This document shows positions 3,452 to 9,388 of a stretch of DNA of 12,973 bases, in pieces. Made by a program: the position numbers and the translations under genes. This DNA is from Myxococcota bacterium (GTDB lineage: Bacteria > Myxococcota > SpSt-1050), in assembly GCA_049969675.1 (NCBI GenBank), contig JBMFOP010000085.1, positions 1 to 12,973 of the forward strand. Direction: 5' to 3'. Positions within the stretch are counted from its first letter, which is position 1. Every line of letters begins with the position of its first letter. Under the pieces are notes generated by a model. It saw only the letters and a program-made list of their open reading frames with translations, did no database searches and was not told the DNA's origin.

Positions 3452-3721
3452 TTAAAATGTTGATTGTAATATTTCCTTTTTGGTCTTGCATCTATTAATT
3501 GATTCTCTATAAATATCAATATCTTTCTCAGCAAGTGAAGCATTAATTGCCTTCTTATAATAGTCTATCGCCTTTAAGTAATCCCCTCTCAATTCATACA
3601 TAATCCCAAATTCGTTGTAGATCTTATCTTTTGCCTCAACAATCTGACCATTTCTGATCTTTTCATCTGCGTCAAAAAACATCTCATCAGCCCTGGAAAG
3701 AATACTCTCAATTCTGGACAT
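3452..3721 (-). CDS. Small TPR-containing protein, 89 aa (possibly an internally deleted remnant of a longer TPR protein)
   Basis: Strong SD GAGAGGAGG (3727-3735, minus) lies 5 nt before the ATG at 3721, preferred over GTG 3724. One clear TPR (KIYNEFGIMYELRGDYLKAIDYYKKAINAS) plus a capping helix. Confidence 0.75.
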   Translation of the reverse strand: MSRIESILSRADEMFFDADEKIRNGQIVEAKDKIYNEFGIMYELRGDYLKAIDYYKKAINASLAEKDIDIYRESINRCKTKKEILQSTF

Positions 3722-3823: not shown

Positions 3824-5371
3824 CTACCTGATTGACTCAAGAGCCTTAAGCATCTTGGAGGCACGCTCAACCCTCCACTTTGCCTTATCCTGAGATGGTG
3901 AGTTGAGAAATAGCTTATAGTATTGTATTGCCATATCAGCCTTCGCCAGAAGTCTATATGACTCTGCCATACCAAATAGAGGATCTGCCAGTTGAGGATT
4001 TAGTGCAAGTGCCTTCTTATATTCGTTGATTGCGTCCAGATATCTTGCCATCCCCAGGAGTGCATCTCCTCTGACGACATAAGCCTCCGCGACATCCTTC
4101 TTTATAACCATCAATTCATCAATATACTTTATTGCACCTGCATAGTCACCCACACTATTTGCCTTATTCGCCTTTGCAAGCAGGTCATTTACTGGCGATG
4201 ATTGTTGTGGTGCCGGTTGAGACGACTGTGAGGTTTGTGCCGCAACCTGTGAACTCTGATCAGGTGACGGAGAAGATTTCCCGGAGAGCCTTGCCTTAGC
4301 ACGGTTTATATTCTCCTTTGCACCTGAATTATTTGGGTCCAGTTGTAATACCTTTTCCCATTCTGATATCGCCTGTTCCAACCTATCAATCTTTGCAAGC
4401 GCAATTCCAAGGTTGTAATGTGCCTGAATGCTATTCGGATTTCTTATCAGGGCATCTCTATAAGTAGAAATTGCAAGTCTATAATTACCATTTGCCAGAT
4501 GCCCATCCGCCTCCTTGACTATCTCATAAGCCGGGTCATTTGCAAGCGTTGCTGTCTTCATAGTTGATGTATCAGAAGTATTCGCATTATTTGTAGTAGA
4601 TTGAGTTGGTTGTCTATCCGGCTTTATGTTTTCTGTTGGTGGAGTAGTATTCGTAGATTGTTTTGCAAAAGAGGTGACAGGAGATGGAGCCGTTGCAGGT
4701 GCCGGCACTGATGGGGTTACGACTGAAGGGGCAGATATTGATGGAGTTGATAGAGCAGGGGTCGATGTGGTTGCTGGTTGAGAGGTTGAAGGGATTGGCG
4801 CAACTACCACTGCTGGATTCTGCTTTGACGAACCCTTTAATTCATTTAGTTTTGCCTTTGCATCATCAATCTTGCTCTGTTTTACATCTTTATTTGCCAT
4901 TGATAAAAACTTCTCGTAATTCTTAATAGCATTCTCCTTCTCACCTACTGAATAATAGGCCTCGGCAAGTCTATAAACCCCATCCGGGTCATCACTTTTT
5001 AGACTTATATATTTTTCCAGATACTTGATAGCCTCGTTAAATAACCCTGCCTTAAGATAGGAATACCCAATATTGTAATATGCAGAGACGAGCTGCGGGT
5101 TATAGCCGAGTGCCTCAGCATAACTTGCCGCTGCCTCAGGATATCTCTTCGCCTTAAAATAGGCGTTCCCCAATGATTCATGAACTCTCCAATTCTTCCC
5201 ATTTATCTTAAGGCTCGCCTTATATAACTCTATCGCCTTATCATAGTTTTTCTCCGCATAAGCGGCATCCCCCTGCTGAGCCAGATTATCAGCAGTATCC
5301 TGAGCAGACCCGATTCCATTAAAAGAGAACAAAATCAAAAAGATTACTAAAAAAACCAGTTTGAATCTCAT
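3824..5371 (-). CDS. Exported TPR-repeat protein, 515 aa: signal peptide and three TPR modules separated by P/S/T-rich and Q/S-rich linkers
   Basis: Sec-type signal MRFKLVFLVIFLILFSFNGIGSA|QD with no lipobox Cys. Many TPR consensus repeats (VHESLGNAYFKAKRYPEAAASYAEAL, AYYNIGYSYLKAG, AHYNLGIALAKIDRLEQAISEWEKVL, AYVVRGDALLGMARYLDAINEYKKAL). Start overlaps the upstream ATPase stop (ATGA, 5368-5371). Confidence 0.92.
   Translation of the reverse strand: MRFKLVFLVIFLILFSFNGIGSAQDTADNLAQQGDAAYAEKNYDKAIELYKASLKINGKNWRVHESLGNAYFKAKRYPEAAASYAEALGYNPQLVSAYYNIGYSYLKAGLFNEAIKYLEKYISLKSDDPDGVYRLAEAYYSVGEKENAIKNYEKFLSMANKDVKQSKIDDAKAKLNELKGSSKQNPAVVVAPIPSTSQPATTSTPALSTPSISAPSVVTPSVPAPATAPSPVTSFAKQSTNTTPPTENIKPDRQPTQSTTNNANTSDTSTMKTATLANDPAYEIVKEADGHLANGNYRLAISTYRDALIRNPNSIQAHYNLGIALAKIDRLEQAISEWEKVLQLDPNNSGAKENINRAKARLSGKSSPSPDQSSQVAAQTSQSSQPAPQQSSPVNDLLAKANKANSVGDYAGAIKYIDELMVIKKDVAEAYVVRGDALLGMARYLDAINEYKKALALNPQLADPLFGMAESYRLLAKADMAIQYYKLFLNSPSQDKAKWRVERASKMLKALESIR
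4688..4762 (-). repeat. Degenerate 15-bp coding tandem repeat, 5 units (TPALS/TPSIS/APSVV/TPSVP/APATA)
   Basis: Plus-strand 9-mers tgcaggtgc (4694), tgatggggt (4709), tgaaggggc (4724), tgatggagt (4739) and agcaggggt (4754) recur at an exact 15-nt period. Confidence 0.55.
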
Positions 5372-6477
5372 ATTCTAAAACCTCCTCTTAATATATCTCC
5401 CAGATGTAATAATTGTCCAAGACTATAAATATCCGAATATAGATCCGGCAATATCACCTTCTCTCCTTTGAAGGTCTCGTCCAGTCCTTTTATATCTCTC
5501 TTAATAGATTCCAGCATCTCCTTCTCAAGTGCCAATATAAATTCAAGATTCAATCTTATATCACTATTTTTACAATTTGTCATCAATATATTTAATTCCT
5601 CCATCAACTCTTCTCTGCCATAAAAATAAGGCGCCCTATTGATAATTGTTGTAATCTTAGAGATGCCACGTTGCCTCAGACCCTTCATAAGATGAGAGAG
5701 CTCTCCAAGTGAAATTTTCTGGGGAGAGCCTATAATAAAATACTTTACATTTTCAGATAGATAAAGCGCACTCAATTCATAAGCGCGATTTAATAAATTG
5801 TCATACATAGAAGATAGACTATTCAAGAACTCCTTCATATCTGAGATAAATTCAAGTCCAAATATCACCCCAAGAATCTTATATAAGAAATCTCCAGTCT
5901 TCTTAAAAAATATCCCTGTCAGGGATCCTGAATCCTCTATATCAGCGAAAAATCGTATTACCCGTTTATCCAGAAAATCCACCATCTTATGAGCCCCATC
6001 TATAAATTCAAAGGCATTTTTAGAGGGGGCTGTGTCAACAATTATTATATCATACTCCTTTTTAAGAAAGATATCATATATCTTCTCAGCGGCGAAATAC
6101 TCCTGGGCACCAATCATTGATTCCGAGAGAAATTTGAATATCCTGTTTGCAACTATCTTTGAAATTACACTTTCCTCAGGGATATATCTTTTGAGTAGAT
6201 TTAGAAAGGCATCTTTTGAATCCACCATCATCGCATCCATCTTACCCAAAAGCACCTCTCCACTCTCCTCTCTGAAATAGTCATTTATACATACAGGTTC
6301 AAATCCAATATCTTTAAGTCGCAATACATCTTTTAATCTCCTGGCAGGGTCCACCGTTATCACAAGAACATCAAGTCCAGTTGCCGCAAAGGACAGTCCG
6401 AGTGCAGAGGAGAGAGTTGTCTTCCCGACACCACCGGGACCAAACATAAATAATATCTGTGTACTTTTTGAATTCAT
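5368..6477 (-). CDS. ArsA/Get3-family (SIMIBI) ATPase, BagB/Rv3680-like subunit, 369 aa
   Basis: P-loop GPGGVGKTT (signature Lys replaced by Pro), switch I TVDPARRL, IGAQEY, switch II YDIIIVDTAPSKNA, IINR. Single ATPase domain with no CXXC. Start overlaps the partner's stop (ATGA, 6474-6477). Confidence 0.9.
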   Translation of the reverse strand: MNSKSTQILFMFGPGGVGKTTLSSALGLSFAATGLDVLVITVDPARRLKDVLRLKDIGFEPVCINDYFREESGEVLLGKMDAMMVDSKDAFLNLLKRYIPEESVISKIVANRIFKFLSESMIGAQEYFAAEKIYDIFLKKEYDIIIVDTAPSKNAFEFIDGAHKMVDFLDKRVIRFFADIEDSGSLTGIFFKKTGDFLYKILGVIFGLEFISDMKEFLNSLSSMYDNLLNRAYELSALYLSENVKYFIIGSPQKISLGELSHLMKGLRQRGISKITTIINRAPYFYGREELMEELNILMTNCKNSDIRLNLEFILALEKEMLESIKRDIKGLDETFKGEKVILPDLYSDIYSLGQLLHLGDILRGGFRI

Positions 6478-7352
6478 AAATTACAAATATATTCAAATAT
6501 CCTCTGTGATTGGTTATTATCAGGGAAGAATGGCACTTCAAATACATTATCTGATGTACTACTTTTTAAGTCACATATAAGTCTCTGCTGCTCCTGATAT
6601 CTCGACAGATAGTAATTGTACAGCTCAAGAATCTCTCTCTTAATCTGGTTTTCACTACAATCCAGCCTGATATCCTTCATATCATATTTTTTATTCACGA
6701 TGATACATAACACCTTTATATTCTCAATTACATTAAAGCGATGGAAGAATTCAATAGTCTCAGATATGACCACCCCATCCGGCAGTGAAATCTGTATTAC
6801 ACCCGAATTTTCAGAAGAATACAACCATCGGTTCATCTCTCTAATTATGTTGATTACCGGACCTCTCTGAAATATCCCTTTTGCGGCATATGGTATCTTC
6901 AGAAAGAGTTCTGCATGTCCGGAGGCTGGCATATCAATAAATATCTTCTGAAAGTCATAATCCTTCACAAGGTGCAACAAAAAATAGGTTATAAGCATCT
7001 CTTTTGCAGAAGGGAGTGCACGATAAAAAGACTTGAGAGGCTTTAGATTTAGTGCCAGATTTATCAAAAATTCGCTTTTTAAATAATCTACCAGATAGAA
7101 TTTTAAGGCGTCCTCGGGCTCTATATGTGAAAAGAAGAGATTTTCATCAACCTTAACGGGTTCAGTGGAGATGTTGCTGAACCTCAATATCTCTCTCAGA
7201 GTAGACCTCTTATTGTCAAAATCCACAATCAGGGTCTTATATCTCAATGCCGATTTCTTTCCCAATGAGACCGTATATGTGCTCTTGCCAGTCCCGCCTT
7301 TACCCGTAATAAAGAATATCCTTCTACTTTTAATTATGTCATCAAGTCCCAT
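6474..7352 (-). CDS. ArsA/Get3-family (SIMIBI) ATPase, BagA/Rv3679-like subunit, about 292 aa
   Basis: Deviant Walker A TGKGGTGKST, degenerate switch I (VDFDNKRS), LPSAKE, switch II IDMPASGH, VISETIE, IVNK. Start reassigned from TTG 7388 to ATG 7352 because the extra 12 codons coincide with a promoter-like element. Confidence 0.88.
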   Translation of the reverse strand: MGLDDIIKSRRIFFITGKGGTGKSTYTVSLGKKSALRYKTLIVDFDNKRSTLREILRFSNISTEPVKVDENLFFSHIEPEDALKFYLVDYLKSEFLINLALNLKPLKSFYRALPSAKEMLITYFLLHLVKDYDFQKIFIDMPASGHAELFLKIPYAAKGIFQRGPVINIIREMNRWLYSSENSGVIQISLPDGVVISETIEFFHRFNVIENIKVLCIIVNKKYDMKDIRLDCSENQIKREILELYNYYLSRYQEQQRLICDLKSSTSDNVFEVPFFPDNNQSQRIFEYICNL

Positions 7353-7360
7353 ACAGGCAG

Positions 7361-7388
7361 AGAATACCACAAAGAAAATCAAATACAA
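7361..7388 (-). promoter_or_regulatory. Putative sigma70-type promoter for the ATPase pair operon (TTGTAT-N16-TATTCT, extended -10 TG)
   Basis: -35 at 7383-7388. TGG-TATTCT at 7361-7369 ends 8 nt before ATG 7352. No SD is present. Confidence 0.45.
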
Positions 7389-7705: not shown

Positions 7706-7743
7706 ATCATCGCTCCATAGTTTGGAGACAAAGGAGGTCTTTG

Positions 7744-8238
7744 ATGAACATCAATTTTAAGGTTGGAGAAAAGGCCGTTTATCCAGCACAGGGGGTGGGC
7801 GAGATTGTTGCAATAGAGACGAGAGAAATCAATGGGAATAAAGAGACATTCTATGTGATGAAGATTCTAAAGACGGAGAGCAAGATCTTGATTCCGACCA
7901 AGAAGGCTCAGGAAGAGGGCCTAAGAAAGATTATCTCAAAGGATAAACTCAAAGATATTTATTCAATATTAAAGTCAAAGGAGATCTCACCCACATCCAG
8001 AAAGACATGGAACAGGAGATACAGAGAATATATGGATAAGATAAAGACGGGCTCTGTCTTTGAGGTAGCAGAAGTAATAAGAGACCTCTCAAGACTGAAG
8101 AGTCAGAAGGACCTCTCTTTTGGAGAGAGAAAGATGCTGGATACAGCCCAGAGTCTTTTGATAAATGAACTCTCCATAGTAAAGAATACAAACGAAGAGT
8201 CTATAGTTCAGGAGATAAAATCAATCTTTAATGCATAA
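7744..8238 (+). CDS. cdnL: CarD/CdnL-family RNA polymerase-binding transcription factor (CdnL type, no HMGA domain), 164 aa
   Basis: FKVGEKAVYPAQGVGEI N-terminal RNAP-interaction domain, conserved Trp in TWNRRYREYMDKIKTGSVFEVAEVIRDL, KDLSFGERKMLDTA. SD spacing favours ATG 7744 over TTG 7741. Linkage to ispDF is the known conserved context. Confidence 0.95.
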   Translation: MNINFKVGEKAVYPAQGVGEIVAIETREINGNKETFYVMKILKTESKILIPTKKAQEEGLRKIISKDKLKDIYSILKSKEISPTSRKTWNRRYREYMDKIKTGSVFEVAEVIRDLSRLKSQKDLSFGERKMLDTAQSLLINELSIVKNTNEESIVQEIKSIFNA

Positions 8239-9388
8239 TATAACCTTTGACCTCATTCTCCTTGCTGCGGGACGGGGGAGAAGATTCGGAGGAGAAAATA
8301 AGGCTTTATTAAAAATTGGCAGGAAGAGTCTAATAGAGTATCAACTTGATATCTTCTCCAGTATTTCGGGTCTGGGCAAAATAATTGTTACATATCATCC
8401 ATCAAATAAGGCGGAAATCAGGGATTCAATAAAAGTCCATCCACTCTATAATAAAGTCATTTTTACAAAGGGAGGAAGAGAACGTGCGTATAGTGTATAT
8501 AATGCACTTCGTGCCCTAAACTATAGTAGTTCTGAACTGGTCGCTATTCAGGATGTGGCAAGACCAAACATTACAGAGGAATTGATAGTCAATGGTTTAA
8601 ATACAGCGGCAAAATATGGTTCAGCCATTCCAGCCATACCGCTCGTAGATACTATAAAAGTTGTTAAAAATGGCAGAATTGTAAGTACAATCCCGAGAGA
8701 GGATATCTATCAGATTCAGACCCCACAGATATTTAATAAGGAGTTAATCTCTTATGCATATTCTAAATGGATAAATAATAAAGATGGATTCCTCCCAACA
8801 GATGATTCATCACTAATTCAAAATCTTGGTATCTCTCCCATTATATACGAAGGGAGTAGAAAGAATATTAAAATTACATACAGGGATGATATTGATATGA
8901 TAGATGAAAACCCGGAATATAGAGTAGGATATGGATATGATATCCATAGGTTAAAGAAAGGTGGAGAGTTATTTTTAGGTGGTGTAATGGTAGAGAAAGG
9001 AATTTCGGCAATCGCCCATTCAGATGGGGATGTATTGATACACTCCATTTGTGATGCATTGCTTGGGGGATGTGGGCTGAGAGATATTGGATACTACTTT
9101 CCAGACTCTGACAGACGATTTAAGGGTGTAAGGAGTCTAAAAATACTGAAAGAGACTTTTAATATTATTTCAGAGAAGGGATTTAAGGTAGTAAATATTG
9201 ATTCAACCATACTACTTGAAAGACCAAAGATAGGTAAGTTCATCTGCGATATGAAGAAAAATATCTCCGACATACTATGTATTTCAGAATCTGCAGTAGG
9301 TATTAAAGCTACAACACAGGAAGGTACAGGTGACATAGGTAAAGGTAGGGCATTTGCTGCCTATTCTGTTGCCCTCCTCTCTCTATAG
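8231..9388 (+). CDS. ispDF: Bifunctional IspD/IspF (MEP cytidylyltransferase / MEcPP synthase), 385 aa
   Basis: IspD motifs: LLAAGRGRRFGGENK, GGRERAYSV, QDVARP, DTIK, QTPQIF, TDD, NIKITY. IspF motifs: RVGYGYDIHRL, HSDGDVLIHSICDALLG, DIGYYFPD, NIDSTI, KATTQEG. 8-nt overlap with cdnL. Confidence 0.96.
   Translation: MHNITFDLILLAAGRGRRFGGENKALLKIGRKSLIEYQLDIFSSISGLGKIIVTYHPSNKAEIRDSIKVHPLYNKVIFTKGGRERAYSVYNALRALNYSSSELVAIQDVARPNITEELIVNGLNTAAKYGSAIPAIPLVDTIKVVKNGRIVSTIPREDIYQIQTPQIFNKELISYAYSKWINNKDGFLPTDDSSLIQNLGISPIIYEGSRKNIKITYRDDIDMIDENPEYRVGYGYDIHRLKKGGELFLGGVMVEKGISAIAHSDGDVLIHSICDALLGGCGLRDIGYYFPDSDRRFKGVRSLKILKETFNIISEKGFKVVNIDSTILLERPKIGKFICDMKKNISDILCISESAVGIKATTQEGTGDIGKGRAFAAYSVALLSL

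Follow-up and report, generated by a model that had tools for sequence, protein, structure and literature searches.

Does a gene for an exported tetratricopeptide repeat (TPR) protein that directly follows two Get3-like ATPase genes encode a partner of these ATPases? The question is raised by three consecutive minus-strand genes on contig JBMFOP010000085.1 of a Myxococcota bacterium (assembly GCA_049969675.1, here G000, a genome of 3.05 Mb). The whole contig (C85), 12,973 nucleotides long, was analysed and is called the window. In the accessible parts of two reports (PMC10597346, PMC12216072), the mycobacterial ATPase pair BagA/BagB (Rv3679/Rv3680) is tied to tolerance of glycerol and nitric oxide and to drug-survival screens, and to nothing else. 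An earlier note on this DNA had proposed that the window encodes a pair of this kind together with a dedicated TPR partner. In this study, the two ATPases appear with good probability to be a distant BagA/BagB-type pair with the Get3 fold, beside which the TPR gene is an incidental neighbor, and the window locus does not provide the missing partner of such ATPases. In the accessible parts of the literature searched, which did not include the primary BagAB papers, neither a TPR partner nor a myxobacterial BagAB pair was described.

As the earlier note had it, the products of the two ATPase genes, P0001 and P0002, each have one ArsA_ATPase domain, with scores (Table 1) above the Pfam gathering cut-off of 24.3 bits for PF02374. 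The best Protein Data Bank (PDB) match of P0002 is chain B of the BagA/BagB structures (PDB 6BS3-6BS5), 6bs3_B, both by sequence (E 9.5e-35) and by fold (rank 1). P0001 is more diverged than P0002; its best PDB sequence matches are Get3 proteins, with 6bs3_A in fourth place. When the P0001 model (predicted local distance difference test score, pLDDT, 93.8) was compared by fold, 6bs3_A gave the top template modeling score (TM-score) among the matches listed, 0.83, at rank 13 by E-value. BagA and BagB share with the window the adjacency of A then B and the single Get3-fold domains. They differ from it in sequence, with identities in the fold alignments of about 25% for B and 16% for A, and in number, since G000 has two BagA/BagB-type pairs.

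Several points count against a firm assignment to BagA and BagB. The leading NCBIfam matches, NF053622 (BagA) for P0001 and NF053621 (BagB; E 1e-48) for P0002, score only 37.8 against a cut-off of 400 and 166.4 against a cut-off of 521. Because both scores lie far below these equivalog cut-offs, we use the label BagAB-type and not BagA or BagB in the strict sense. The genus-level B proteins sit on a flagged long-branch join in the tree of the single gene, and the pair is firmly placed solely by a concatenated mixture-model tree of 34 pairs, in which it falls within a 12-row clade (support 100). The BagB cut-off is passed in 0/201 genomes of the phylum, and BagB-like genes occur in 183/201; these 201-genome tallies take in one unpublished genome, G195, on which alone no claim depends.

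The relationship to BagA and BagB is seen in a quick tree of 138 rows, comprising 61 A-type and 66 B-type rows and 11 references, with one partial row dropped. Tsukamurella and Nonomuraea supplied the actinobacterial reference pairs, in place of the M. tuberculosis proteins. The A-type rows (support 95) and the B-type rows (support 99) form sister clades joined at 96, and both actinobacterial pairs lie within them. ArsA halves, archaeal Get3, cyanobacterial Get3d-like references and a tandem Nitrospira protein all fall outside. The phylogeny thus places both window ATPases with the BagA/BagB type among ArsA, Get3, Get3d and Bag-type references. Next to the Tsukamurella pair are whiB and a transglycosylase gene, not a TPR gene. 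Moreover, BagB-type genes without a detected adjacent A-type gene were observed at L049:8691-9815 and L201:5358-6473 and in L177 and L183, and are possible exceptions to an obligate-pair rule; a Gate-domain membrane gene lies upstream of the BagB-type gene in L049 and L201.

Based on the alignments, the nucleotide-binding motifs are divided between the two subunits. P0001 has the signature lysine of the deviant P-loop (Lys18), a switch II of DMPASGH and a groove region of 44 amino acids (aa), and lacks the switch-I Asp-Pro. P0002 has a P-loop without the signature lysine, a switch I with D43-P44 and R47-L48, and a helical groove region of 97 aa. The same division runs through the tree. The signature lysine is present in 61/61 A rows and 0/66 B rows, the switch-I Asp-Pro-x-x-Arg-Leu is found in 66/66 B rows but is not conserved in A, and the switch-II glycine is present in 61/61 A rows and lost in B. 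The client-groove stretch is short in A (38-45 aa) and long in B (86-100 aa), compared with 76-81 aa in Get3-type references. The complementary motifs and the asymmetric groove also occur in both actinobacterial pairs.

In this class of ATPases, the signature lysine works in trans on the partner subunit. The switch-I aspartate positions the attacking water, according to the accessible part of one report (PMC10248533). Taken together, the split motifs, the trans-acting lysine and the switch-I aspartate point to one complete ATP site, on B, and the pair is likely to form a lopsided cytoplasmic heterodimer. In such a dimer, Lys18 of the A subunit would reach across to B, which holds Asp43, so that hydrolysis would require both subunits. 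The A site, to which B gives no lysine, would be a weak or regulatory site. A strict version of this model is weakened by D46 of P0001, an aspartate at the switch-I position that is found in 11/61 A rows in total; because of this residue, the site of P0001 may not be fully dead and may retain some activity. Furthermore, since the groove stretch is short in A and long in B, the two inserts would enclose an asymmetric hydrophobic pocket instead of a symmetric Get3 groove. The pair is likely, by prediction, to bind hydrophobic cargo. The motif split thereby yields a testable prediction, a heterodimer with a single site.

For the third gene product, P0003, the analysis agrees with the exported three-module TPR protein described in the earlier note. 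Its TPR blocks lie at about residues 27-180, 281-364 and 396-515, and the linkers between them are low-complexity segments rich in Pro/Ser/Thr/Gln/Ala (70% and 84%). A cleavable signal peptide is predicted at about residues 1-23, as judged by a hydropathy heuristic and the alignment. An N-terminal hydrophobic stretch is present in 20/20 aligned rows (P0003 and 19 relatives), which show no further membrane segment by hydropathy, bar one linker window at 1.7. From these features, P0003 is predicted to be periplasmic. The alignment of the 20 orthologues also shows family-specific motifs, and the three-block exported TPR protein (L149-L168) can be regarded as an unnamed family with motifs of its own. 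Profile searches detect this family in at least 79/201 phylum genomes, a lower bound given that seven candidates were scored per genome. A protein search with P0003 returned 10 close full-length or near full-length relatives followed by generic TPR proteins, and missed the wider family. A scan of a genome collection with the TPR alignment gave 3 full-length matches among at least 61 loci, the rest being generic TPRs; these three are not counted as additional cases because they are possibly class genomes already counted.

The earlier note had likened P0003 to Sgt2, the TPR co-chaperone of eukaryotic Get3, and this analogy does not hold. Sgt2 is cytosolic. In the accessible part of one account, Sgt2 acts with Get4/Get5 as an upstream donor that takes the client after its release from the ribosome and hands it on to Get3 (PMC6593721), whereas P0003 is predicted to be exported across the inner membrane. 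Because of its predicted signal peptide, the TPR protein would not meet the cytoplasmic ATPases, and none of the three genes encodes a membrane-spanning link. The PDB matches of block 1 are generic TPRs, with no Sgt2 or SGTA in the best 60 of 104.

Within its class, which is represented here by five genomes only, the TPR gene is linked to the pair in a manner that at first favors a partnership. It lies directly behind the pair in 5/5 class genomes from two families, the triplet is also intact in two further metagenome loci, the flanking genes vary across these genomes and loci, and four-nucleotide overlaps are found in 6/6 genus-level loci. (L210 appears to duplicate G002 and was left uncounted.) As a control, 545 kb of G004, from the other family of the class, was sampled for co-directional neighbors with clear orthologues in G000. 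Between these two genomes, 39/56 neighbor pairs are retained (21/32 on contigs not picked for TPR clusters), and the linkage of pair and TPR gene within the class is therefore what most neighbors show.

Outside the class, no such linkage was detected. A three-block TPR gene stands beside a BagB-like gene in 0/52 loci from 24 other families; these loci were picked for their scores and for breadth of families, and their downstream sequence spans no less than 2.9 kb in every case. Conversely, either ATPase lies within about 6 kb in 0/20 TPR-orthologue loci, for each of which P0003 is the best G000 match. Neither the three-block family nor a second family of TPR proteins, a lipoprotein described below, accompanies the closest relatives of the window pair. 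The 9 non-class members of the 12-row clade have no TPR gene of either kind, and with five more loci that join this clade by the B tree alone, the count is 0/14. In 8/8 complete or near-complete genomes of one family, with all BagB matches listed, the TPR gene and the BagB-like gene are at least 1.1 Mb apart. In addition, the ATPase is present without a TPR match in 20/20 genomes of family f6, 15/16 of f15 and 11/11 of f17. Since the two occur together only in one small class and are separated in the remaining relatives surveyed, the TPR gene is a probable gene-order neighbor, and its product is likely a lineage-specific operon neighbor and not a partner. The survey does not bear out the dedicated partner of the earlier note, which had named a TPR gene not conserved beside the pair in related genomes as grounds for refutation; outside the class this is the situation observed. 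A rearrangement in the ancestor of the class likely put the TPR gene behind the pair; the gene would have retained a strong ribosome-binding site of its own and probably shares a transcript with the pair.

G000 has a second BagA/BagB-type pair at C9:11153-13199 (-), without a TPR gene. This pair is directly upstream of waaA-, heptosyltransferase-, lpxK- and acyltransferase-like genes, a lipid A/Kdo-pathway-like set whose names were taken from translations and not from domain scans. The layout is similar in G001 and G002, and the B subunit of the C9 pair contains CxxC in all five class genomes. In other myxobacteria, a paralogous pair is followed by a TPR lipoprotein in 26/37 loci from 13 families, 16 of the 26 having been used to build the profile. 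The cluster comprises a PhaR-N regulator, ParA-like and phasin-like genes (opposite strand), BagA, BagB, YjbQ, the TPR lipoprotein, an M48 peptidase and RuvX-MltG, as in L194:64-6808 and in L198, L207, L044, L170, L195 and L200. It resembles the window in that an exported TPR protein follows a BagAB-type pair, and differs from it in the paralogue of the pair, in the TPR family and in its far wider conservation. The lipoprotein has a lipobox and a strongly conserved C-terminal domain, and the two TPR families have only generic repeats in common (143 columns, 18% identity).

The lipoprotein is also present in all five class genomes, away from both pairs and next to yjbQ in 4/5, and the remaining parts of the cluster are dispersed over other contigs of G000. 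We considered whether the three-block TPR protein had replaced a lost lipoprotein and rejected this, as 5/5 class genomes keep the lipoprotein and the lipoprotein belongs with the other paralogue. The simplest history is that an old cluster broke up and one pair gained a new neighbor. The well-conserved neighborhood of the other paralogue, with its TPR lipoprotein, PhaR-N and phasin-like genes, is a better lead for BagAB function than the window locus, and because the pair is nearly universal in the phylum, myxobacteria are a ready model. Our best guess for the putative cargo, and the weakest step of the proposal, is a lipid or else an amphipathic client bound to membranes, with a role in maintaining lipids or the envelope; it comes from the predicted pocket and from the genes for PhaR-N, phasin-like and hydrolase proteins next to the paralogous pair. 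The guess is not helped by the lack of a match to the polyhydroxyalkanoate (PHA) synthase N-terminal domain, PhaC_N, in G000 (one family searched in a 99.9% complete genome). With no PhaC_N, and with the PhaR-N and phasin-like genes on other contigs, a PHA-granule role in G000 is not supported.

Could the three genes nevertheless form a trans-envelope module? Hydrophobic cargo would then be moved by the ATPase heterodimer and received by the exported TPR protein, and the class would have recruited its three-block TPR protein independently of the lipoprotein. The integrity of the triplet across the class despite changing flanks would fit this, and the recurrence of a non-orthologous TPR lipoprotein behind the paralogous pair could hint at a repeated need for an exported TPR partner. 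Given this recurrence of exported TPR genes behind BagAB-type pairs, we keep the model as an unlikely one. Set against it are the absence of either TPR family from the loci outside the class that hold the same paralogue as the window, the generic nature of what the two TPR families share, and the lack of an encoded membrane component. The lipoprotein link is itself breakable, since the class genomes keep the lipoprotein away from either pair. Moreover, at least 28 reading frames of G000 contain TPRs, about 1% of the 2389 called genes, so that one TPR neighbor among many lineages is not rare. The broader proposal, that BagAB-type pairs in myxobacteria-like predators drive a trans-envelope lipid or lipoprotein pathway needing an exported TPR adaptor, is similarly improbable; if true, the orphan BagAB ATPases would gain a partner, along with a function that could be tested in a harmless, genetically tractable host. 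It is slightly harder still to credit that the genes are co-regulated without contact of their products, sharing a promoter (in some genomes also with glmM) because both serve envelope maintenance. The promoter-like element and the ribosome-binding site are conserved, and the window, G002, L209 and L211 all have a small TPR gene, glmM and pdxJ downstream in the same orientation, but G001 has other downstream genes and the retention equals the class background.

The remaining alternatives concern the ATPases themselves. That they are a true Get3 counterpart inserting tail-anchored proteins, with the TPR gene irrelevant, is rather improbable. The window pair shares with Get3/TRC40 the fold, the deviant P-loop and, in subunit B, a long hydrophobic insert, and the leading Foldseek matches of P0001 by E-value are archaeal TRC40/Get3. 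Unlike Get3, it is a predicted heterodimer with split motifs, both of its proteins lack CxxC, and A has no such insert; with 44 aa in A against the 76-81 aa of Get3-type references, a two-fold groove could not form. The insert by itself does not predict tail-anchor targeting, according to the part of the account available (PMC6593721). A split ArsA, the ATPase of an arsenite pump, is very hard to defend. The pair resembles ArsA in its Pfam family and in having two nucleotide-binding domains in total, and G000 has an acr3 gene. The acr3 gene, however, is located on another contig, one ArsD query found no match in G000, and no ars gene is present among the 12 window genes scanned, as the earlier note had observed. 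Two cysteine columns common to both reference ArsA proteins hold Ser/Gly and a gap/Phe in the window proteins, which are encoded by two genes outside any ars operon. An arsenite-pump identity was therefore rejected, because the metal-binding cysteines of ArsA are missing and the clade is separate; tree, fold and motifs together uphold the earlier view that these are not pump ATPases. The ArsA in the accessible part of PMC12678847 is unrelated to the window ATPases. Collectively, a distant BagA/BagB-type pair with an incidental TPR neighbor accounts best for the locus.

The arrangement and expression signals of the locus are consistent with a plausible operon of the three genes. The reading frames are confirmed, with ATGA stop/start overlaps at 6477-6474 and 5371-5368. 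Such overlaps are ordinary, because by the reading-frame-based gene calls a four-nucleotide overlap is possible at 270/1739 co-directional neighbors in G000 (15.5%). The two junctions are instead gaps of 10 and 31 nucleotides (nt) in the second family of this class. The AGGAGG hexamer precedes the TPR start in 5/5 genus-level relatives and is absent from the stretch shown for the other family. The single promoter-like element proposed upstream of the first gene consists of TTGTAT (7388-7383), a 16-nt spacer, and TG with TATTCT (7366-7361), and ends 8 nt before the first ATG. A scan with the consensus found 21 sites against an expected 15.5 +/- 4.0, which is not clearly above chance. However, all 5/5 upstream regions aligned retain a TG-n-TATTCT-like -10 element, and in 4/5 an ATG follows it after 7-9 nt. 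The first ATG has no Shine-Dalgarno sequence, and the extended -10 element abuts the start codon. Because the conserved -10 element ends so close to this ATG, the sequence suggests a leaderless transcript from the candidate promoter.

Table 1. Features of the ATPase and TPR locus in the window.
Feature	Position	Strand	Length (aa)	Evidence or remark
BagA-type ATPase (P0001)	6474..7352	-	292	Pfam PF02374, 66.9 bits
BagB-type ATPase (P0002)	5368..6477	-	369	Pfam PF02374, 82.2 bits
Three-block TPR protein (P0003)	3824..5371	-	515	Pfam TPR matches
AGGAGG ribosome-binding site of the TPR gene	5381..5386	-		within the 3' end of the BagB-type gene
Putative sigma-70-type promoter	7361..7388	-		sequence and conserved -10 element

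On the other side of the promoter, a short CarD/CdnL-type gene (7741-8238, +) is followed by a fused ispD-ispF gene (8231-9388, +), which is an ordinary arrangement. The carD gene is found upstream of the locus in the window and not in G001 or G002. In family f10, the three-block TPR gene mostly follows addAB-like genes and purA, and comEC and carD come about 6 kb further on. Downstream of the locus, the small TPR gene of the window (3452-3721, -) encodes 89 aa, compared with 168-169 aa in three relatives. About 83 codons have been lost in frame between two similar short motifs, either by a real deletion or by an assembly collapse. Elsewhere in G000, a reading frame of about 3500 aa at C16:26084-36583 (-) contains several TPR matches.

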